Below, in pieces: positions 2,143 to 32,039 of a DNA stretch of 37,801 bases. This DNA is from a virus. The DNA lies in IMG/VR virus record IMGVR_UViG_3300031730_000014, positions 1-37,801 of that record, one strand, 5' to 3'. The position numbers and the translations under genes are program-made. The notes below the pieces were generated by a model. That model made no database searches and was not told the origin of the DNA. It saw only the letters and a list, made by a program, of their open reading frames with translations. Each line of letters starts with the position of its first letter. Positions within the stretch are counted from its first letter, which is position 1.

Positions 2143-2363
2143 GGGCTGTACTCCGTTGTGGCTGAGCAACGCCGTTGTGGTTAGCGTTGCGAGCTGACCC
2201 ACAACATACGCAACGTTATGACCAACGTCAACCACAATGTTGCGGGTGTTCTGGACATTGTGGGTGATCTTGAGGGCGAGGCCCAAAGTTGCACTAGCGC
2301 TGCGGGCCAACGTTGTGGATGCTGTACCTCGACGCTGACCAACGTTGAGGAGGATTGAGCAAC
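2143..2363. promoter_or_regulatory. Divergent switch region with repeated operator-like motifs
   Basis: Seven copies of (G/A)TTGTGG or its complement: 2155-2161, 2174-2180, 2199-2205, 2232-2238, 2257-2263, 2312-2318 and 2368-2374. Palindrome CAACGTTG at 2308-2315 and 2340-2347, with near copies at 2211-2218 and 2223-2230. G+C is lower than the surrounding sequence. Confidence 0.6.
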
Positions 2364-3230
2364 ATGGCCACAACAAAGGACCCCAAGGCGTGGGCTGCCC
2401 TCGGTGAAGTGATCGCTGAGCGGCGGAAGCAGATGGGCTGGGACCAGCGAGAGCTTGCTGAGGCGGCGGGCATCTCCGAGAACACGGTCAGCAACTACGA
2501 ACGGGGCCGGGTCCCTGCCCGCGGCAAGGTGCCGGCGGGCTACTACCGGGTGGAGAAGGCCCTCAAGTTCGGCCGTGGCAGCATCGACCAGATCCTGGCG
2601 GGCGGTGGCCCGACCTTCGCGGTGGAAGGCCGGGCAGATACGCGCCTCACGCTGCGAGATCCGGACGAAATTGACGACCCTCTGCTCCGTGCCGTCATTC
2701 CCAAGATTCAAGAGGCTATGGAGCTTGAGCAAGTTGCCATGGCATTCGCCGACTTGGCGTCGCGCTGGAACGCCTCAGATGAGTTGATCGAGCGTTACAA
2801 GTCGGCAACGTCAGATCTACTCGGAAACATGTTCAGCCCGGGGCACGGGCCGATTGAGGTGCAGCGGTACCACGAGGCAATGGCGGCCGGAAAAGTCTCC
2901 AACGAAAACATGGAGAAGCGTCCCGACCTGGGATGGTTCGCCCTGGGGGTGGACCTGGAAGGCGCTCGAGACGACCTTGGTGACATCCTTCGGAAGGCCC
3001 GATACGGGGCGGGTATGGAGTTTGAAGACCTGAGCCTGGCTTCGAAGGTGCCGGTAAGGATCATCGAATACATCGAGGCGAGCAGGTTCGATTTTCCGGG
3101 CGCATTCATGCACGCGCCTGTCTATATCCAGCTCATGGCGGACGCTCTTGGTCTGGATGCTGAGCCCCTTATTGAGCGATTCAAGGCAGAGCATGCAGAA
3201 CCTGAGACTCCGTCGGAAGACGAGGGCTAG
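2364..3230 (+). CDS. XRE-family HTH transcriptional regulator (repressor candidate) with a second, RodZ/HTH_25-like C-terminal HTH
   Basis: ATG at 2364, 11 nt after GAGGAGG (the track start at 2355 is a TTG abutting the RBS). N-terminal GWDQRELAEAAGISENTVSNYERG is a classic XRE HTH. The C-terminal MEFEDLSLASKVPVRIIEYIEASRFDFPGAFMHAPVYIQLMADALGLD resembles the RodZ-type HTH. Confidence 0.85.
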   Translation: MATTKDPKAWAALGEVIAERRKQMGWDQRELAEAAGISENTVSNYERGRVPARGKVPAGYYRVEKALKFGRGSIDQILAGGGPTFAVEGRADTRLTLRDPDEIDDPLLRAVIPKIQEAMELEQVAMAFADLASRWNASDELIERYKSATSDLLGNMFSPGHGPIEVQRYHEAMAAGKVSNENMEKRPDLGWFALGVDLEGARDDLGDILRKARYGAGMEFEDLSLASKVPVRIIEYIEASRFDFPGAFMHAPVYIQLMADALGLDAEPLIERFKAEHAEPETPSEDEG

Positions 3231-4735
3231 CTCGCACCCCGCTTCCACGCGAAGTCAACAGCCTCGTAGTCGAAGTACCCGCCGTCGGGCATGCGTCCGG
3301 GCCGCGGCGTCTTCAGCGTCACCTCGACGAGACCTCGCAGCACGTTTCGCTGTCGGTCCAGCTCCAGCGCACGCCAGGCCTTACGCACGTCCGGCGCCCC
3401 CACCAGGCCGACGAGCGGGTCCTGGGTTGCCGCCCTGGCCAGCTGCCGCGTGACGCCCTCCAGCTGCCCGCGGGCCGTGTCCATGCCCTCGGTGAACGGC
3501 CCCAGCTCCAACCGGCCGGCGCCGAACATGCCACCGAGATCCTTCATGCGCTGCCGGATCTCCTCGGCCTCCGCCTGGAGCCCAGCCACGTTCACGTCTT
3601 CCGGGCCGGGCAGCAACAGGTCGTGCGCATCGGCGCGTGACAGCCGCTCGACGATGACGTCCTCGACGTACTGGTCCACGATCTCCGCCCGGCGGCCGCC
3701 GCCATGGCCGGTCGGGCAGCGGTACGACGGATACGACCGCCCGCCGGACTGGGTGACGGTCACGCCCTTCCCGCATCCGTCGCGGCCGCACAGGTACAGC
3801 AGCGAGCCAACCCACTTCGGCTGCGCCCCGCGGTTCACCGTGCGGCCCGGGTCGGACAGGATCGCCACGACGGCCCTGAACTTCGCCTCGTCGACGATCG
3901 CCTCCCACTTCCCCGGGCCGACCTCCTCGCCCTTGTAGACGGCGATCCCCGCGTTCCTGGGGCGCAGCAGCATGTCCCGCATGTCGGTGTGCGTGACCGG
4001 ATTCCCTCTCGTGGTGAGCACACCCTTGTCGGCGCACCACTTCACGAGCGAACGGATCGAGCCGCCGGACAGAATCTCGTCCGTCCAAAACCGCAGCGCC
4101 TCGGCCTCCTCGGGCACGACCTTCGTCATGTCCAGCTCGTCGACCTCGACCTCCTCGCGGGTCTTCCGGTCGATCTTCTTGCACTTCTCACCGGTGGGCA
4201 CGCCCCACCCGAACGGCCGGATGCCGCCCGCCCATTCACCCGCCATGGCCTTCTGCTGTCGGGCACGAGCAACGCGGGCGCCCTTGTGTTCGGACTCCAG
4301 ACGGGCGACGACGCCCATGAACCGGGCCTGCGCCCTGCCGGTCGGGGTGACGAGGTCGAGGGCGCCGGCCTGCACGGTGTGCGTGGACACGCCGCGCTTC
4401 TCGCAGAGGTTGATGTACTCCTCCAGCTCCAGCGGGCTGCGATGCAACCGGTCGGTGTGCCAGACGATGACCACGGTTGCCGCCCCCTGGTCAAGGTCGG
4501 CGAGCATCTGCTGATAGCCCTTGCGCCTCTTCCCGGAGAAGGCGCTCACGTCGTTGTCGACGTACACCTCGACGACGTCCCAGCCGTTACGTTCCGCGAG
4601 GGCCTCGCAGTCCTCGCGCTGCCGGTCGACGCCGAGGCCGGCGCCCGTGCGGTCCTGGCTGATGCGGCAGTAGACGACCGCGCGCGTCCGGCTGACAGCC
4701 GTTGAGGTGGACTTCATCCCCCGAGTGTGGCCCAA
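3227..4735 (-). CDS. int: Large serine recombinase (phage integrase)
   Basis: Resolvase catalytic domain AVVYCRISQDRTGAGLGVDRQREDCEALAERNGW...VVIVWHTDRLHRS, followed by a recombinase domain, a zinc ribbon CGRDGCGKGV...YRCPTGH and a C-terminal coiled-coil region. Start is TTG at 4735 or ATG at 4717. Confidence 0.93.
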   Translation of the reverse strand: MGHTRGMKSTSTAVSRTRAVVYCRISQDRTGAGLGVDRQREDCEALAERNGWDVVEVYVDNDVSAFSGKRRKGYQQMLADLDQGAATVVIVWHTDRLHRSPLELEEYINLCEKRGVSTHTVQAGALDLVTPTGRAQARFMGVVARLESEHKGARVARARQQKAMAGEWAGGIRPFGWGVPTGEKCKKIDRKTREEVEVDELDMTKVVPEEAEALRFWTDEILSGGSIRSLVKWCADKGVLTTRGNPVTHTDMRDMLLRPRNAGIAVYKGEEVGPGKWEAIVDEAKFRAVVAILSDPGRTVNRGAQPKWVGSLLYLCGRDGCGKGVTVTQSGGRSYPSYRCPTGHGGGRRAEIVDQYVEDVIVERLSRADAHDLLLPGPEDVNVAGLQAEAEEIRQRMKDLGGMFGAGRLELGPFTEGMDTARGQLEGVTRQLARAATQDPLVGLVGAPDVRKAWRALELDRQRNVLRGLVEVTLKTPRPGRMPDGGYFDYEAVDFAWKRGAS

Positions 4736-4828
4736 CAGTGGTGTCTCTGTCCCGGGTTCGGGAACCCCGATATGAGCCTATGACGCCACTAGGTAATGGT
4801 CACGCGGGGTTACCGGTACAGGGGGAGG
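4736..4828. other. Candidate attP and integrase promoter region
   Basis: A 93-nt gap immediately upstream of the serine integrase gene. It contains GGGTTC-GG-GAACCC (4754-4767), GGTAA-N13-TTACC (4792-4814) and the palindrome TACCGGTA (4811-4818). Confidence 0.4.
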
Positions 4829-5062
4829 CTAGTCACCGTCGTCGATAGCCAGTTCTTCGATCGCCTTGATCATCTGCCGGACACCCTGTAGGTCGTCGCC
4901 GAATTCCGCCCAGATCTTGAACGATCCGCCAGGCTTCTGCGTGATCTCGAAGCGATGGCCGTTCCCCTCGGCATCCCTGACCAGTTCCTGGACGTCGGCA
5001 GGGGCGGCATCCTCAAGTTCCAGTTCGACCCTGGTCTTTACGGCCATTTTCGTCAGCCTCAT
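4829..5062 (-). CDS. Hypothetical acidic protein (77 aa)
   Basis: ATG at 5062, 4 nt after GGAGG. Sequence MRLTKMAVKTRVELELEDAAPADVQELVRDAEGNGHRFEITQKPGGSFKIWAEFGDDLQGVRQMIKAIEELAIDDGD. Confidence 0.6.
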   Translation of the reverse strand: MRLTKMAVKTRVELELEDAAPADVQELVRDAEGNGHRFEITQKPGGSFKIWAEFGDDLQGVRQMIKAIEELAIDDGD

Positions 5063-5121
5063 GGCGCCTCCAGCTTGGGCTACCGCCAGTCTGCGCCGCA
5101 CCTTGCGTCCCCGCACATGGA

Positions 5122-5207
5122 GCGGCCCCGGTCGGCGAGGGGGTCAGCCGACCGGGGCCGCGAGACCGCCCGTCCTCCAGGTGCTCACGGGGTACGAGGA
5201 CGGGCGG
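5122..5207 (-). terminator. Two tandem strong hairpins downstream of CDS 5211..5579
   Basis: Perfect 15-bp stem GCGGCCCCGGTCGGC (5122-5136) / GCCGACCGGGGCCGC (5147-5161), and perfect 12-bp stem CCGCCCGTCCTC (5166-5177) / GAGGACGGGCGG (5196-5207). They begin 4 nt after the stop codon. Confidence 0.7.
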
Positions 5208-5210
5208 GGA

Positions 5211-5579
5211 TCACGAACGCTCGGAGGTAGCGACCCTGGCGAGGGCTTCCCAGTGGTCGCACAGGGCGTTGAGGGTGCGGGCGAGGCGCCGGGTGTGGCC
5301 GGCGGGTCCGCCGTACCTGCGGGTGGGCTCGGAGCGGAGCCGCTCGCGGGCCTCGCCGACGCTGACGAGCGCGCAGTACCGGGGGATGCTCTCGGCCGGG
5401 AGCCGCTTCGCTGCCTGCTCGACCTCGGGCAGCATCAGCGCTAGGTGCCCGCGCAGCTGGAGGGTGAGCGTCTCCAACTCGCCGGGGACCGGCGGGAGAG
5501 CCTGGGGTACGGCGTCCGGGTCGAGGAGCCGGTCGATCACGTCCCGCATGGTCTCGATGTCCGGCGGTTCGGCTTTCAT
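5211..5579 (-). CDS. Small helical protein (122 aa) resembling Streptomyces DUF6415-type proteins
   Basis: ATG at 5579, 7 nt after AGGAG, with an ATGA overlap onto the upstream gene. Sequence MKAEPPDIETMRDVIDRLLDPDAVPQALPPVPGELETLTLQLRGHLALMLPEVEQAAKRLPAESIPRYCALVSVGEARERLRSEP...RLARTLNALCDHWEAL. The family call is from memory. Confidence 0.6.
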   Translation of the reverse strand: MKAEPPDIETMRDVIDRLLDPDAVPQALPPVPGELETLTLQLRGHLALMLPEVEQAAKRLPAESIPRYCALVSVGEARERLRSEPTRRYGGPAGHTRRLARTLNALCDHWEALARVATSERS

Positions 5580-5914
5580 CGCTTCACTCCTAACTGAGCC
5601 CACAGCCCGCATCCGTCGGTGGCGACTCCCGTGAGGTCGGCCAGGCCGCTGATGATCTGCCAGCCGGGCCCGTGGCTGCTGAGCAGGGGGAGCGGGTCCG
5701 GGCCGTCTGCCGTGATGCGGATGCGGTTGCCCGCGGTCCAGATCCCCATCTCGATGACGGGGGCTCCGGAGTGCAGGACGGCGACGTACAGCTCATGCGC
5801 GAGGAGCGGGGCATCGGGGTGCTTCACGCGGCCGCGGGTCCAGAGGCGGACGTGGGCCGCCTCGATGGGCTTGGCCTTGAAGGGCTTGCGCCAGGTATGA
5901 CCCGACTCGGGCAT
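5576..5914 (-). CDS. Anti-sigma-factor/RsbW-like HATPase-fold 'ATP-binding protein' (112 aa, motifs degenerate)
   Basis: ATG at 5914 after GGGGGA. MPESGHTWRKPFKAKPIEAAHVRLWTRGRVKHPDAPLLAHELYVAVLHSGAPVIEMGIWTAGNRIRITADGPDPLPLLSSHGPGWQIISGLADLTGVATDGCGLWAQLG follows the layout of Streptomyces HATPase_c_2 proteins, but the N-box and G-box residues are weak. Confidence 0.55.
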   Translation of the reverse strand: MPESGHTWRKPFKAKPIEAAHVRLWTRGRVKHPDAPLLAHELYVAVLHSGAPVIEMGIWTAGNRIRITADGPDPLPLLSSHGPGWQIISGLADLTGVATDGCGLWAQLGVKR

Positions 5915-6012
5915 AGCTGTCCCCCGGAGACAGTGGTTATCTGAATACGGTAACTGCCTTTGTGTATTCAGATTGTCGCCGGGATTGGCGTTGGTCAAGT
6001 GGAAGGGCGATT
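5915..6012. promoter_or_regulatory. Divergent promoter/operator region of the GntR cassette
   Basis: Perfect 10-bp inverted repeat ATCTGAATAC (5939-5948) / GTATTCAGAT (5964-5973) with a 15-nt spacer. GTATAC at 6017-6022 lies just inside the GntR gene. Confidence 0.55.
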
Positions 6013-6816
6013 ATGCGTATACAGATTGACGCGATCAGTGGAAGCGGGAGCATCGCTGTGGCACAGCCTGAGTACCTGCGGATCGCCGCCGACCTGCGGC
6101 GCCGCATCGCACCCGGCGGCGAGTACGGACCCGGCGACCGCATCCCCACCCTCCCCGAACTCTGCGAGCAGTACGGCGTCTCAGAGATCACCGTCCGCAA
6201 CGCGCTGCGTCTCCTCACCAACGAGGGGCTCATCGAGTCCAGGGCCCGCGCAGGGACCATCGTCCGTGCCCGGCCGGCCATTCACCGGATGCCCGCCGAC
6301 CGCTACCGGTCCACGCCCGGCACCAAGTCGACGCCGTACACCAGGGATCAGGGCATCGGCTGGACCGAGTACCGCCTCGACAAGAGGTTCGAGCGCGTCC
6401 AGGCCGACGCTGAGCTGGCCGCCCTGTTTGAGTGCGAGGTGGGCGAGCGGCTCCTCGCCCGGCACTTCGTGTTCTACGACAACGACCAGCCCACCCAGAT
6501 GTCCATCAGCTACGTGCGGTGGTCGGACGTCGAGGGGACGCCGGTCGCCGACCCCATCAACGAGCCGTGGCCGGGCGGCACTCGGGCACAGATGGCGTCC
6601 CTCGGGATCCGCGTCACGGCGATCACCGAGTCTTTCCAGGCGGGCATGCCCACCGAGTTGGAGGCGGCGACGCTGCGCATCGGCTCGGGCGTTCCGGTCC
6701 TGCGGTACACGCGGCGCCACATCGCCGACACCGGCCGGATCGTCGAGGTCGCTCACCCGATCGTGCGCCGCGGAGACACCACCATCGTCGACTTCCGCAT
6801 CGACCTCGACGACTGA
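6013..6816 (+). CDS. GntR-family (HutC/UTRA-type) transcriptional regulator
   Basis: ATG at 6013 after GGAAGGG. The winged HTH is YLRIAADLRRRIAPGGEYGPGDRIPTLPELCEQYGVSEITVRNALRLLTNEGLIESRARAGTIV. The C-terminal UTRA-like domain is ...GERLLARHFVFYDNDQPTQMSISYV...VLRYTRRHIADTGRIVEVAHPIVRRGDTTIVDF. Confidence 0.9.
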   Translation: MRIQIDAISGSGSIAVAQPEYLRIAADLRRRIAPGGEYGPGDRIPTLPELCEQYGVSEITVRNALRLLTNEGLIESRARAGTIVRARPAIHRMPADRYRSTPGTKSTPYTRDQGIGWTEYRLDKRFERVQADAELAALFECEVGERLLARHFVFYDNDQPTQMSISYVRWSDVEGTPVADPINEPWPGGTRAQMASLGIRVTAITESFQAGMPTELEAATLRIGSGVPVLRYTRRHIADTGRIVEVAHPIVRRGDTTIVDFRIDLDD

Positions 6817-6853
6817 GGGGTCCGGACTGGTCCGTACCCCTGGACGCACGAAA

Positions 6854-6887
6854 GCGGCCCCGCCCTCCCGAAGGAGAGCGGGGCCGC
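6854..6887. terminator. Bidirectional terminator between convergent genes
   Basis: Hairpin GCGGCCCCGCCCTCC-CGAA-GGAGAGCGGGGCCGC (15-bp stem, 1 mismatch), followed by the T-rich attccgtttcgtatttcgtt. Confidence 0.7.
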
Positions 6888-6905: not shown

Positions 6906-7526
6906 TTACGGGTACTGGCGCCGGGTCGGGTCGAGACCCAAGGAGAGCAGGCCGCCGTTGCCGTTGCCCGGCTCCGGATCGGGGGCGCCGTCCTGGCGGC
7001 ACACCTTCGCATAGGGGTCGTAAGACGGGGTCTGCCACGAGTAGCCGTCGGGGCACGACTGACCGGCCGGGCCGGGCGGACCCTGCTCGCCCGTGTCGCC
7101 CTTCTCTCCGCGCTCACCCGCAGGGCCGGATGGACCTGCGGGGCCAGCGGGGCCGACGATCGATTCGCCGTCACGGCCTGGCACTCCCGAGGCGCCGGGC
7201 GCCCCCGTGGCGCTGGCCCCATCAGCGCCGGTTTTCCCGTCCTGGCCTTCTTCGCCGGCAGGGCCGGAGGGCCCAGGTGGGCCGGTCGGGCCTGGCGGTC
7301 CCGTGACCGAGGCGCCGGGCTGGCCCCGGCTGCCGGGCGGGCCGGTGACCGGGGTTCCTCCGAGGCGCTCAACCTGGTGGGCGAGCGCCCGGTTGTACTC
7401 CCGCTCTGCCTGCAGCTGGTGGCCGAGCTGGCCGCTTTGCCACCAGATGTATGCGACGAGCAGGGCGAGCATTCCGCCAATAAGGAGGGCGATCGGGTCG
7501 CGGCGGGGCACCCTGTGCGCGCTCAC
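6906..7526 (-). CDS. Membrane-anchored collagen-like (Gly-X-Y repeat) protein
   Basis: GTG start after AAGGGGGGA. N-terminal TM IALLIGGMLALLVAYIWW, then a short coiled segment, then about 100 aa of G-X-Y triplets (GPPGSRGQPG...GPPGPTGPPGPSGPAGEEGQDGKTGADG...GPAGPAGPSGPAGERGEKGDTGEQGPPGPAG). The C-terminal module contains two Cys. Confidence 0.85.
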   Translation of the reverse strand: MSAHRVPRRDPIALLIGGMLALLVAYIWWQSGQLGHQLQAEREYNRALAHQVERLGGTPVTGPPGSRGQPGASVTGPPGPTGPPGPSGPAGEEGQDGKTGADGASATGAPGASGVPGRDGESIVGPAGPAGPSGPAGERGEKGDTGEQGPPGPAGQSCPDGYSWQTPSYDPYAKVCRQDGAPDPEPGNGNGGLLSLGLDPTRRQYP

Positions 7527-9836: not shown

Positions 9837-10300
9837 CGGCCGTCCTCCTCACCGTCAAGGGCCGCGGTGGCGGCCAGGTCGTCGAGCGGGTCGGCTGCGT
9901 CGTCGGGCGGCCGGTTCCAGGCCGACTCGTCGGCGGGGTTCCACCAGTTCCGGTCATGCGGCAGCAGCGCGGCCAGCTCCGCCTCGACGGCCCGCACGTC
10001 GTCGGGGAAAACCAGGGCGAACCAGCCGGCCCCGCACTCCGTGCACGCCATGCGCGGATCGTCCGGTGAGACGACCTGCGCGGAGCCGCACGGGCAGTCC
10101 GCCACCCACCGGCCGTGGTTGACCTGCGCGTACAGCCGGTGCCCGAGGATGAAGCCCTCGGGCGGGATGAGGCGGCGCTGCTGGCGCAGTTCGACCCAGC
10201 GGAACACCCGCTCCGCGGCTGGCATGAGCGCCCAGGCGTGGGCCAGTTGGTCGGGCGGCGGCAGGTAGAACGTCTCGGCGCGCACGACGGCGATGGGCAC
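9833..10300 (-). CDS. Hypothetical tail-region protein with a zinc-ribbon motif
   Basis: GTG start after AAAGGGGGGA. It contains CPCGSAQVVSPDDPRMACTECG. Confidence 0.6.
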   Translation of the reverse strand: MPIAVVRAETFYLPPPDQLAHAWALMPAAERVFRWVELRQQRRLIPPEGFILGHRLYAQVNHGRWVADCPCGSAQVVSPDDPRMACTECGAGWFALVFPDDVRAVEAELAALLPHDRNWWNPADESAWNRPPDDAADPLDDLAATAALDGEEDGR

Positions 10301-27979: not shown

Positions 27980-30103
27980 CTATTCGCCGTCCTCGACGGC
28001 AGGGAGATCGGCGTAGCGGAGGCCCTTGGCGCCGCCGCAGCACTCCCGGATCGTCAGCTGCTTGGTGGAAACCTTGAAGGGCTTCAGCGCGGCGCTGAGG
28101 GCCGTCGACGAGCCTGCGGCATCCAGCTCCAGCCACTGCTTGTACAGGTCGGCCCGGTAGGCGGCGAGGGCCTCGACGAGCCGGTGGGAGTGCACAGCCT
28201 CGACACCGTCCGGCCAGACCGCCCGCAGGTGGTCGACGACCGTCTCGACGTCCTGCTCTTCGACCGCGGCACCGACGGCCTGTCCGGTGAGGGTGCCGGC
28301 CGCGGTGCGCAGTGCGAGGGCCCGCTTCCCGATGTCCTCGGCTTCGGTCTGCTTGATGAACGCGGCGCGGACGGTGATGCCTTCGCGGCCGCGGGCGAGG
28401 ATGCCGGTGCCCTGTTCGTCGACGCTGATGTCGGTGGCGCGCAGGCCGCGGTCGTAGGCGCCGGTGCCTAGGACGTTGTTGTTGGCTCGCCAGTCCATGA
28501 CGGCCAGGCACAGACGGGTGCCGACTGACGAGGAGACGCCGGTGGGCAGGGACGGCGCGTCCGGGTTCTGGGTGAGCAGGATGAGGATGATGCCGTAGGC
28601 GCGGCCCTTCTTGATGAGGCGGGTGGCCAGGGCGGCGGCCTCGTCCTTGTAGTCGGCGTGGGTGAAGAGTTCCTGGACCTCGTCGATGACGATGACGCGC
28701 GGGCCGAGGTTCTGTTCCGGGTACTTCTCAGCCAGCGCGCGGGTGACCTTGCGGCCCTCGGGGACCTCGCTGGACGGCAAGGACTTGATGAACTTGGCGC
28801 GCCGCTGGTACTCGGCGATCCCGGAGCGCATGCCGCCGAGGGCGGCCTCCAGGTCCTCGTCTTCGTCGCCGGAGACGTAGCGGTGGCAGACGGGGCGGAC
28901 GGAGTCGAGGTCGCCGGATCCCTTGAGCTCGAAGATCCACAGTTCGGCGGTGGGGTCGAGGGCGACTCCGAGGACGATGGCGAGGGCGCAGGAGGTCTTG
29001 CCGGAGCCGGGGATGCCTCCGACCAGGAGGTTTGAGTACATGAGGGTGATCTCGACGAGGTTGCCGCGCGGGTCGAAGCCGTAAGGCAGCGGCTCGTACA
29101 CGTCGGCCTGGCCGTCCTTCATCAGCGGCCACAGCTTGCGGGCGGCCTTCGCGGGGTCGCGCTGCGCCACCCACAGGACGAGGCGTCCGGGATGCGCGGT
29201 GCGGTCGCCCTCAAGCCACACGGTGCTGATGGGGCGGCGCATGGCGGCGGCGAGCGCGGCCCGCTTCTCCAGGACGGCGCTGGCCTCGATGCCGGGGGGC
29301 AGGTCGACCTCGGCTCGCCAGCCGGGCCCGTCGCGCATGACCTCGGAGGCGAACTCGGTTCCCTTCTTGCCCTTCTTGCCTTCGATGCCGATTGCGGCGA
29401 GCGCGTCGAGGACCTCGGTGGAGTCGAGGCGGCGCAGGACGTTGGTGGCGACGTAGCGGGTGATCAGCGGCTTCCCGTCGCTCTTCTTGCCGTTGAGGCC
29501 GACAAGGGTGGCCGCGGTGAGCGTCGCGGTGAGCGTCCAGCCGGGGGCCAGGAAGCAGCCGGCCAGCGTGGTGATGCCGGTGGTCGTGGCGACCGCCAGG
29601 GAGGCGATACGGCGTGGCCGGACGCGGCGGGAGTGCTCGCGGGACAGCGTGATCCAGGCGTCGATGTCCGCGGACGCGGCGGCCTTGGCTTCGACGGGTC
29701 GGGCCTCGGTGTCCGCGACCCACTTGCCCCAGCGGAGAACCATGCGGGCGAGGCCGCGGGGCGCGCGGGTGAGCAGGCGCAGGGCGTAGACGGGCAGGCG
29801 GATGGCGTGGAAGGCGGTGACGTGGCCGTAGTACGACGCGGTCCAGCGGGCGGCGTTGACGAACTCGGCGGCGTTGCGCAGGAACGTGGGGACGACGGGC
29901 GGGGCGTCGGCGAGGTACGCCTGCTTCTCCGCGATCCAGGTGCCTGCGGGCGGGGCCTGCTCGGGCGGGTCGACAGGACGCGGCTCGGCGTTCTGGACGA
30001 CGTCGATGATGGTCTGCTTCAGGTCCGCGTCCTGGACGTCCTCGCTATCCGGCGGGGGCGTCCTGGGGGCGTCCTTGTGGAGCTGTACGACGTTGTTCGT
30101 CAT
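27980..30103 (-). CDS. FtsK/SpoIIIE-family DNA translocase, TraB-like
   Basis: 707 aa. Hydrophobic N-terminal segments (IASLAVATTTGITTLAGCFLAPGWTLTATLTAATLVGL), Walker A GGIPGSGKTS, Walker B PRVIVIDEVQELF, LLTQNP, and a C-terminal helical domain. Confidence 0.9.
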   Translation of the reverse strand: MTNNVVQLHKDAPRTPPPDSEDVQDADLKQTIIDVVQNAEPRPVDPPEQAPPAGTWIAEKQAYLADAPPVVPTFLRNAAEFVNAARWTASYYGHVTAFHAIRLPVYALRLLTRAPRGLARMVLRWGKWVADTEARPVEAKAAASADIDAWITLSREHSRRVRPRRIASLAVATTTGITTLAGCFLAPGWTLTATLTAATLVGLNGKKSDGKPLITRYVATNVLRRLDSTEVLDALAAIGIEGKKGKKGTEFASEVMRDGPGWRAEVDLPPGIEASAVLEKRAALAAAMRRPISTVWLEGDRTAHPGRLVLWVAQRDPAKAARKLWPLMKDGQADVYEPLPYGFDPRGNLVEITLMYSNLLVGGIPGSGKTSCALAIVLGVALDPTAELWIFELKGSGDLDSVRPVCHRYVSGDEDEDLEAALGGMRSGIAEYQRRAKFIKSLPSSEVPEGRKVTRALAEKYPEQNLGPRVIVIDEVQELFTHADYKDEAAALATRLIKKGRAYGIILILLTQNPDAPSLPTGVSSSVGTRLCLAVMDWRANNNVLGTGAYDRGLRATDISVDEQGTGILARGREGITVRAAFIKQTEAEDIGKRALALRTAAGTLTGQAVGAAVEEQDVETVVDHLRAVWPDGVEAVHSHRLVEALAAYRADLYKQWLELDAAGSSTALSAALKPFKVSTKQLTIRECCGGAKGLRYADLPAVEDGE

Positions 30104-31096: not shown

Positions 31097-31269
31097 CGCG
31101 TCCACCCCCGGATGTGGCGGCTGATGCGCGGCCACGCGATGACGCCGGCCGCGAACGCGAGGACGGCGGGCTGCGAGACGAGCCCGGCAACGACGGCCAG
31201 GACGAGGGCGAGGAGCGTCGGGTACGCGACGAGGAGGCCGAGGACGGCGCCGAACAGGATGCGCATCAT
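31093..31269 (-). CDS. Small membrane protein (58 aa)
   Basis: ATG at 31269 with an ATGA overlap onto the upstream stop. Sequence MMRILFGAVLGLLVAYPTLLALVLAVVAGLVSQPAVLAFAAGVIAWPRISRHIRGWTR. The listed 336-aa ORF is an over-extension. Confidence 0.55.
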   Translation of the reverse strand: MMRILFGAVLGLLVAYPTLLALVLAVVAGLVSQPAVLAFAAGVIAWPRISRHIRGWTR

Positions 31270-32039
31270 GACGGCACCGCCTCGTAGTCGGGGAGCTCGT
31301 CCTCGTGGAAGAGGTTGCGTCCTCCGATGCCTTTGCGGTGGACGGTGAGGCGTCCTGAGGCGACCCAGGAGCGGACGGTGGACATCTCGATGCCGTACTT
31401 CGCGGCGACCTGGGCGGAGTTGAGGAGGGGCGGTTGGGGCGGGATCTGGTTCGCTTCCGCCCAGTCGTCCTCGGCGTCCTGGTCCGTCCCGGGCGGGAGT
31501 TCGGGCGTCCCGTCGGCGTCCTGCTCGTCGAGCCGTTCGAGAGTGATCTCGTCGGTCGACAAGGGGTCGGCCTGACCCTCTGTCGCTACCTCGGGGACGC
31601 TCGGGACGGCTGGAGACGCCGGGGCGTCCTCGGCGTCGTGCGCCAGGCGCTCGTGCAGCTGCCGCATGAGGGCGCCGAACGCTACGAGTGCGGCGGAGGG
31701 CGGGACGGCGGCCACGATGTACTCCATCGGGTCGGCCCCGTATCCGACGCCCGCGACGTTCAGTGCGATCGAGCCGAGGGACCCGAATGCGGCGAGGGCG
31801 ACGGCCCACCAGTCCATGCCGCGGCGGGCCAGCGACGCGCGGAGGATGAGGAGTTCCCCGGCGACGATGAACAGGTCGACGGTGGCGGGCCAGGCCCAGG
31901 CGCGGGCGCCGTCGAGGCCGTTGTCGTCGGCGATGTCGTGGAGGTGTTCGTAGGACAGCCAGAAGGCGGCTGCGGTGAGCAGGATGGTGACGGTGGCTGC
32001 GCCGACGGCGAGGCCGTCGCGGGCGTTGATACGGCTCAT
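31266..32039 (-). CDS. DUF2637-like polytopic membrane protein with a C-terminal HTH (SpdA-type spread protein candidate)
   Basis: The N-terminal half is LAVGAATVTILLTAAAFWLSYEHLHDIADDNGLDGARAWAWPATVDLFIVAGELLILRA...WAVALAAFGSLGSIALNVAG, followed by an acidic linker. The C-terminal LLNSAQVAAKYGIEMSTVRSWVASGRLTVHRKG is an excisionase-type HTH. Confidence 0.75.
   Translation of the reverse strand: MSRINARDGLAVGAATVTILLTAAAFWLSYEHLHDIADDNGLDGARAWAWPATVDLFIVAGELLILRASLARRGMDWWAVALAAFGSLGSIALNVAGVGYGADPMEYIVAAVPPSAALVAFGALMRQLHERLAHDAEDAPASPAVPSVPEVATEGQADPLSTDEITLERLDEQDADGTPELPPGTDQDAEDDWAEANQIPPQPPLLNSAQVAAKYGIEMSTVRSWVASGRLTVHRKGIGGRNLFHEDELPDYEAVPS

Follow-up and report, generated by a model that had tools for sequence, protein, structure and literature searches.

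A putative ligand-gated cassette pairing a HutC-type GntR regulator with a predicted anti-sigma-kinase-like pseudokinase beside attP of a Streptomyces-type phage

The viral sequence IMGVR_UViG_3300031730_000014 of the IMG/VR database was analysed over its full length of 37,801 nucleotides (nt; hereafter the window). It has ~70% G+C and the gene content of a Streptomyces-type tailed phage genome. Between its tail-fibre and integrase genes lies a cassette of three genes. A regulator gene of the GntR family on the plus strand (6058–6816) is divergent from a minus-strand operon consisting of mid112 (5576–5914) and a gene of the DUF6415 family (5211–5579). Three related boxes are present in the control region shared by the two transcription units, and hairpins bound the cassette on both sides. 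An earlier reading, made from the sequence only, had described the genes, an ATGA overlap, a 10-bp inverted repeat and three hairpins. All of them are present where it had placed them, and the features exceed chance expectation.

Conservation of the neighbourhood was surveyed in 36 loci obtained from a scan of one genome per species and in 17 viral contigs obtained from a scan of IMG/VR with a tight alignment of the mid112 family. A GntR/UTRA gene lies divergently upstream of mid112 in 36/36 genome loci and in 17/17 IMG/VR contigs, and the gap between the two genes is nearly fixed at ~95–100 nt across genome loci and viral contigs. The sequence-only reading had described a self-contained unit of three genes. 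In the survey of more than 50 loci the neighbourhood is conserved for the GntR–mid112 pair and not for the trio, since DUF6415 adjoins mid112 only in the window, L016, L029, L043/44 and L047/48 (~5 of 55 loci). Identity across the loci is 77–98% for the GntR repressor and 52–94% for mid112, compared with 27–64% or no match for the adjacent tail genes. The pair is thus far better conserved than the genes next to it, which indicates that it moves among otherwise different phages.

The GntR gene most likely encodes a protein of 252 amino acids (aa). The ORF read at 6013–6816 has a GntR winged helix-turn-helix domain at residues 21–84 (PF00392, E 4.2e-17) and a UTRA effector-binding domain at residues 126–250 (PF07702, E 1.1e-14), in agreement with its earlier assignment to the HutC type. 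The best NCBIfam match is HutC, below the cut-off, and the protein is therefore no equivalog of any named regulator. The start had been placed at ATG 6013. This codon is out of frame with the body of GntR in four relatives (L004, L009, L011 and L012), and it falls inside a putative operator and a candidate −10. The codon GTG 6058, with GGGAG 7 nt upstream, is kept in 35/36 genome loci (37 sequences with the window) and gives intact proteins of 251–255 aa; a gene caller gives 251 aa for the GntR of L045. Taken together, the frame breaks, the conservation of GTG 6058 and the 251-aa gene call make GTG 6058 the most likely start, with ATG 6013 as an upper bound.

The mid112 product is 112 aa long and is the conserved member of the operon. 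Nearly all of its 136 close homologues are exactly 112 aa in length; every homologue with a named organism comes from Streptomyces, and those with a name all carry the annotation hypothetical. The median ratio of non-synonymous to synonymous substitution (dN/dS) is 0.32 over 231 pairs, which indicates a real gene under purifying selection. An exhaustive profile search of 1.84 billion representatives returned only 56 clusters, and the family is therefore small. No relative was obtained by tblastn among 50,697 phage records, and only four were found on plasmids, on large Streptomyces/Embleya replicons. The protein matches no Pfam, NCBIfam, PHROG or PADLOC model, and PDB sequence searches with two mid112 family profiles returned chance-level matches only. 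When mid112 and 29 other ordinary family members were compared with Pfam at E ≤ 1, no match was obtained; P0174 alone matched. P0174 and P0169 are among the weakest matches of the profile search. The former is a true HATPase_c/HATPase_c_2 protein, and in the latter a mid112-like domain is joined to one of the HATPase_c_2 type (E 3.8e-16).

A structure model of mid112 was built with AlphaFold2 from a diverse alignment. The model has a mean predicted local distance difference test score (pLDDT) of 94, a predicted template modelling score (pTM) of 0.88 and the topology beta-alpha-alpha-beta-beta-alpha-beta-beta. It replaced an earlier model from a shallow alignment (65–90% identity), for which pLDDT was 57.6 and the fold matches were HATPase-like and non-significant. 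Foldseek against the PDB at E ≤ 0.001 gave 19 matches with template modelling (TM) scores of 0.63–0.81 and a probability of 1.00, namely 17 chains from anti-sigma kinases of the RsbW, SpoIIAB or mycobacterial UsfX type and two chains of the response regulator LvrC (9qih). The only significant viral match was the HATPase-domain protein of Streptomyces phage Nesbitt. In profile–profile comparison with hhalign, the diverse mid112 alignment minus the one true HATPase matched 32 Streptomyces HATPase_c_2 'ATP-binding proteins' at 97.15% (E 4.7e-11, 109 columns); with the tight mid112 family alone the value was only 54%. The boldest claim of the sequence-only reading, an RsbW-like HATPase fold for 5576–5914, holds by both Foldseek and profile–profile comparison.

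The residues expected for ATP binding were compared with the HATPase_c_2 reference set. The invariant N57 of the N-box aligns with the near-invariant Ala45 of mid112, D86 of the G1 box aligns with Gly71, and the ATP lid is ~7–8 residues shorter than in the reference. Asn is absent at the N-box position from every member of the mid112 family. The motifs, which had been called weak, are not weak; two key residues are missing family-wide. From the alignment and the model, mid112 is predicted to be a remote homologue of the anti-sigma kinases that is unable to bind ATP canonically. The loss of the N-box Asn and the G1 Asp points to a pseudokinase that would act only through binding to a partner.

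SpoIIAB works as a dimer. L039 (3305–3951) carries two mid112-like genes in tandem, with an XRE HTH_31 regulator and a CYTH protein as neighbours, and in P0163 mid112-like domains are fused in tandem. Both arrangements would fit a dimeric mid112.

The perfect 10-bp inverted repeat reported earlier in the control region was recovered by a repeat search at 5939–5948/5964–5973. Its two arms stand as boxes; the description as two boxes was incomplete, since a third lies at 6017–6026. The three are considered putative operators. O3 (ATCTGAATAC, 5939–5948, plus strand) lies in the 5′ leader of mid112, at a position kept in all related loci. O2 (ATCTGAATAC, 5964–5973, minus strand) overlaps the predicted −10 of mid112, and O1 (ATCTGTATAC, 6017–6026, minus strand) overlaps the predicted transcription start of gntR. 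Three copies of the half-site CTGWATAC were found in 37.8 kb, where 0.19 would be expected, and each of them lies in the control region. For the 10-mer box, three exact matches and one chance match with one mismatch were found in 37.8 kb, against 0.39 expected. Each box is probably one dimer site, since in L042, a distant relative, all of the boxes take the form of a 6+6 palindrome (ATCTGT-NN-ACAGAT). The same three-box layout is retained in a distant relative with 45% identity.

The intergenic regions of more than 50 loci were aligned. Within any one locus the variable bases of O1, O2 and O3 vary in concert, and they go with the residues that begin the GntR recognition helix. The helix VSEITVR goes with the box CTG[AT]ATAC (the window and 7 loci), VSEAPVR with C[CT]GGATAC (6 to 7 loci) and VS[EQPD]TTIR with CTGAGTAC (the remaining loci). 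This co-variation is the strongest available computational evidence that GntR binds the boxes. A fourth box variant (CTGTAATCAC / GTATCAGTAATC) is present in the same three-box layout on the viral contig L053 (~9870–10000).

Placement of the mid112 promoter follows from conservation. A putative −35 of mid112, TTGACC (5993–5998, minus strand), is kept in 35/36 genome loci (37 sequences with the window), and a putative −10, CAATCT (5970–5975, minus strand), lies 17 nt downstream of it and overlaps O2. On the opposite strand, the candidate gntR promoter TTGGCG-18 nt-GATTAT (−10 at 6009–6014, plus strand) would place the transcription start inside O1.

The earlier description of a unit bounded by strong hairpins on both sides is supported by confirmed stems and by folds of low energy compared with shuffled sequences. 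Two predicted terminator hairpins, each 100% complementary in the repeat search, follow the operon in tandem on the minus strand. The proximal one (12-bp perfect stem, 18-nt loop, 5166–5177/5196–5207) begins 4 nt past the DUF6415 stop codon, and the distal one (15-bp perfect stem, 10-nt loop, 5122–5136/5147–5161) is the second of the pair. Folded as RNA, the segment 5122–5207 gives z = −6.3, with 0/200 shuffles equally stable. A putative two-way terminator at the junction of gntR and the tail-fibre gene (6850–6868/6873–6891, 19 nt, 89% complementary) serves both strands, with z = −5.1 on the plus strand and −6.9 on the minus strand, and again 0/200 shuffles are equally stable. The distal hairpin segment is kept behind the cargo genes in L003, L005, L045, L049, L050, L054 and L061. 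In L060 the match is limited to the attP segment, and a stem of different sequence is still visible by eye. The proximal hairpin is kept in relatives, and by eye the changes in its stem preserve pairing.

The phage attachment site attP was mapped to 4736–4828 (core ~4759–4769), directly upstream of the serine integrase gene, from the break of homology in an integrated relative. A non-coding block of ~85 nt before the integrase is conserved in 5 elements. In the integrated S. canus prophage L003, homology passes through the hairpins into this block and ends at GGGGTTCCCG, with host genes beyond. This identifies the block as attP and the window as the unintegrated form. The block has flanking inverted arms (AGTGGCGTC ... 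GACACCACT). In the four viral contigs L049, L050, L060 and L061 the order is mid112, two small open reading frames (ORFs), the same two hairpins, the ~85-nt block and a serine integrase 80–85% identical to that of the window. In L045 the same module is found at a junction beside a tRNA-like sequence (by eye), which indicates a different integration site.

The earlier view of the cassette as insulated and near attP is borne out by the position of attP and by the hairpins on both sides. In a lysogen the cassette would be the final transcription unit of the phage ahead of the host junction, transcribed outward and followed by two terminators. These tandem terminators would block read-through into host DNA in the lysogen, or into orf95 and the integrase gene (int) in the free phage genome. 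Where a prophage was clearly recognised, its tail, lysin and holin genes flank the pair on the side of GntR. In about half of the genome loci no phage genes were recognised among the neighbours, most of which are unannotated. The cassette resembles prophage morons in its predicted promoter of its own, its terminators, its location at the att edge and its cargo, which varies among related phages. It differs from them in that the regulator–effector core is far better conserved than the carrier phages and has its own ligand-type repressor.

The cargo of the window is the 122-aa DUF6415 protein. It matches PF19979 over its full length (E 2.8e-32; 111.8 bits against a gathering cut-off of 27.5), so that the product once labelled DUF6415-like is a true full-length DUF6415. 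Its reading frame shares the ATGA at 5576–5579 with that of mid112, and from this overlap the gene is predicted to be translationally coupled to mid112. A comparison ruled out DUF6415 as a relative of mid112, and the two are unrelated; no PDB relative was found with the DUF6415 profile. Its 153 homologues go under the name 'DUF6415 family natural product biosynthesis protein', and a homologue in phage Kromp, gp32, also lies in the interval between lysis genes and integrase. In most relatives of the cassette the cargo slot holds two small Cys-rich ORFs (~70 and ~59 aa) with zinc-ribbon-like CxxC pairs, for example at L049 10337–10700, L050 1565–1925 and L003/L045 10336–10733; the first of them overlaps the mid112 stop codon. 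Other genes, e.g. a methyltransferase gene, follow mid112 in some relatives. These findings suggest that DUF6415 fits as a separate, exchangeable effector.

At other loci (L068 5138–7390, L066 5593–7381 and L065), on integrase- or transposase-rich DNA, a DUF6415 gene is either arranged divergently with a WhiJ-like HTH_31+DUF5753 regulator or situated downstream of a further GntR/UTRA regulator. The association with such regulators on mobile DNA means that the NCBI name 'natural product biosynthesis protein' may be misleading. A 101-aa gene beside GntR in L066 was considered as a mid112 relative and was unconvincing at 9 bits.

We are fairly confident of the regulatory logic of the cassette as read from these features. 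The HutC-type GntR protein, with its winged helix-turn-helix and UTRA domains, would bind the three related boxes of ~14 bp. Binding at O1, over the transcription start of its own gene, would lead to self-repression, and binding at O2 and O3, which cover the divergent promoter's −10 and leader, would repress the operon. A small molecule at the UTRA domain would then release the operon. Its first and only conserved product would be mid112, with the predicted RsbW/SpoIIAB fold and a remote relationship to the AbaA-type 'ATP-binding proteins'. Having lost the Asn for Mg/ATP, the Asp that binds adenine and a large part of its lid, this protein would work only by binding a partner, and the genes behind it (DUF6415 in the window) would be interchangeable cargo.

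Neither a sigma factor nor a STAS protein was found among the 30 window proteins scanned, and the partner of mid112 is therefore probably a host protein. The likeliest partner would be a host sigma factor or a developmental regulator, with altered stress or developmental signalling of the host as the outcome; the cassette would most plausibly serve to manipulate development or a host sigma factor. On balance, and with moderate confidence, we favour a phage cassette that represses itself, is gated by a ligand and, once derepressed, would supply a binding protein of AbaA/RsbW-like type directed against a host regulator. The confidence placed in the identity of the target is much lower than that placed in the regulatory logic.

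Several observations weigh against this interpretation. The scan that gave no sigma factor or STAS protein leaves the target a guess. The three specificity classes of helix and box are three clades, hence few independent events. The promoter hexamers are weak, and a consensus scanner reported none of them. In the leader transcript, O2 and O3 could form an RNA hairpin with each other (z = −4.9); a purely RNA element is less likely, since O1, which lies outside that transcript, varies along with the repeat, as does the recognition helix. In S. viridochromogenes DSM 40736 (L043 9118–10911) the pair lies between a type I-E CRISPR-Cas system and an FGGY/ABC/hrdB-dnaG housekeeping region. The GntR gene is broken there, with only a 100-aa UTRA fragment left, and mid112 and a 179-aa DUF6415 gene are intact. 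Tight repression is thus not essential for the host.

The AbaA paralogues are the nearest functional precedent for mid112. They are HATPase_c 'anti-sigma-like' proteins encoded beside their own WhiJ regulators, and overexpression of abaA6 blocks sporulation (PMC10294661). As in the AbaA/WhiJ/BldB systems, a small anti-sigma-kinase-like protein is encoded in the cassette divergently from a dedicated transcription factor (PMC10294661), and mid112 is remotely homologous to Streptomyces 'ATP-binding proteins' of the AbaA type. The distant relative L039 alone has an adjoining XRE HTH_31 regulator, and DUF6415 elsewhere fills the slot beside WhiJ-like HTH_31+DUF5753 regulators. The cassette differs in that its regulator is a HutC-type GntR protein with a ligand domain and not a WhiJ-type XRE protein, and in that no DUF397/BldB partner is part of it. 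Unlike AbaA, mid112 is without ATP-binding residues and falls below the Pfam thresholds, and its module is phage-borne and att-adjacent. With RsbW, SpoIIAB and UsfX, mid112 shares fold and topology. It differs from them in its identity of 12–16%, its length of 112 aa as against ~140–160, its truncated lid and the lack of the N-box Asn and the G1 Asp, and no STAS antagonist or sigma gene was found nearby.

A more specific form of the favoured interpretation is conceivable, if doubtful. The mid112 family would be a phage-evolved anti-sigma-kinase decoy, a pseudokinase that partner switching cannot reset. Its locked target would be a SigB-like or developmental sigma factor of the host, or a component of the AbaA/BldB network, and the pseudokinase would be released only by a metabolite acting through the phage's HutC repressor. 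If so, this would be the first described temperate phage plugged into Streptomyces developmental or stress partner-switching under small-molecule control, and the helix/box classes would prevent cross-talk between co-resident prophages.

An unlikely alternative, with a claim of its own from architecture, is a Kor/Pra-type life-cycle switch, in which GntR would correspond to KorSA or SCO3932 and mid112 to a Pra-like activator of excision, replication or transfer. KorSA–pra of pSAM2 and SCO3932–SCO3933 of an S. coelicolor remnant of an integrative and conjugative element of actinomycetes (AICE) also place a HutC-type repressor on an integrating element (PMC8584621, PMC2440964). In SCO3932/SCO3933 the repressor is divergent from a small gene, with sites in the shared region, one of them over the start of the small gene, and with a serine integrase nearby (PMC8584621), as the SCO3937 element and the window both have. 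KorSA and SCO3932 are self-regulating and control one adjacent small gene from purely local sites; KorSA binds only its own and the pra promoters, and the GntR boxes are likewise local. The window holds AICE-like genes (FtsK/SpoIIIE, 27980–30103, and DUF2637+HTH_17), a NUDIX gene follows one distant relative, as in AICEs, and transcription of mid112 runs towards int when the phage genome is free. Against these likenesses, mid112 has an anti-sigma-kinase fold without a DNA-binding domain, and its family comprises only 56 clusters, whereas homologues of pra have been widely reported from elements of Frankia and Mycobacterium. In the lysogen the operon and int are at opposite ends of the prophage and two strong terminators follow the operon, which excludes control in cis; moreover, mid112 is retained in remnants where no phage genes were recognised. 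The operators also differ, AC[TC]T[AG]TT[GC][TG][GT]ACG in the KorSA/SCO3932 type as against ATCTGWATAC here, and the carrier here is a tailed phage. The sequence-only reading had named control of the transfer genes by the cassette as one possibility. Direct control is unlikely, as the scan of the window found no box copy outside the control region, including the vicinity of the FtsK/SpoIIIE and DUF2637+HTH_17 genes.

Improbable, in our view, is a role in superinfection exclusion, defence or kil-kor addiction, by which mid112, with or without the cargo, would harm incoming phages or the host if it were not repressed. An att-proximal, insulated site with variable cargo, as here, is where prophages typically keep accessory and defence genes; the pair is retained at loci in which no phage genes were recognised and most neighbours are unannotated, and homologues of korSA and SCO3932 could not be deleted. 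The defence role suggested earlier finds no known family to rest on, as PADLOC-DB v2 gave no match for mid112, DUF6415 or orf95 and two chance-level matches for the helix-turn-helix (HTH) domain of GntR. The cassette encodes no nuclease, NTPase or membrane effector, and the broken repressor beside an intact mid112 in S. viridochromogenes (L043) argues against lethal derepression.

It is very improbable that GntR is the main prophage immunity repressor and the box classes are immunity groups: the specificity classes do resemble heteroimmune groups and no gene of the region is better conserved than the repressor, but no box copy lies near early, replication or structural genes of the 37.8-kb genome, a separate XRE regulator, conserved with the integrase, and an Xis-like HTH gene flank the integrase, and the module sits at the far end of the late genes.

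The cassette as favoured here, with a self-repressing ligand-type regulator and a partner-binding pseudokinase, is made of known kinds of parts, namely a HutC repressor, an anti-sigma-kinase fold, DUF6415 and a moron-like position. A search of the literature found no description of a GntR–mid112 module. What is new is a pseudokinase family without annotation, its strict pairing with a ligand-type repressor, a three-box region with matched classes, and a constant att-proximal place in a group of Streptomyces prophages. The mid112 family would represent a branch of the anti-sigma kinases that is dead in ATP binding and is linked to a ligand-type repressor of its own. What the many AbaA-like 'ATP-binding proteins' of Streptomyces do is obscure, and a minimal mobile two-gene version with an on/off switch would offer an easy handle on their binding partners. 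For phage biology, the cassette is a candidate signal-responsive module of host manipulation at the prophage–host junction. If binding is confirmed, the three matched repressor/operator classes would provide orthogonal parts for Streptomyces synthetic biology.

The remaining genes of the window follow a phage-like order. The early genes on the minus strand are, in order, those for a D5_N primase, SSB, a DUF2637+HTH_17 protein (31266–32039) and an FtsK/SpoIIIE-family protein (707 aa, 27980–30103). The last two are typical of actinomycete conjugative elements and are here in the early region of a tailed phage. They are followed on the same strand by the genes for an HNH and a portal protein and then by those for tape-measure and tail proteins, an endolysin, a holin-like protein and a collagen-like tail fibre (6906–7526, minus strand, from library scans), the last convergent with gntR. 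The cassette region comes next, then the serine integrase (3227–4735), the XRE regulator (2355–3230, plus strand) and an Xis-like HTH_17 gene. Within positions 1–1340 no ORF has the codon-position G+C pattern of real genes, despite many long spurious ORFs. A minus-strand gene without a family match, orf95 (4829–5116), is inserted between the tandem terminators and attP and is absent from the closest attP-form relatives, L049, L050, L060 and L061. Its position just upstream of int suggests that it would suit a recombination directionality factor.

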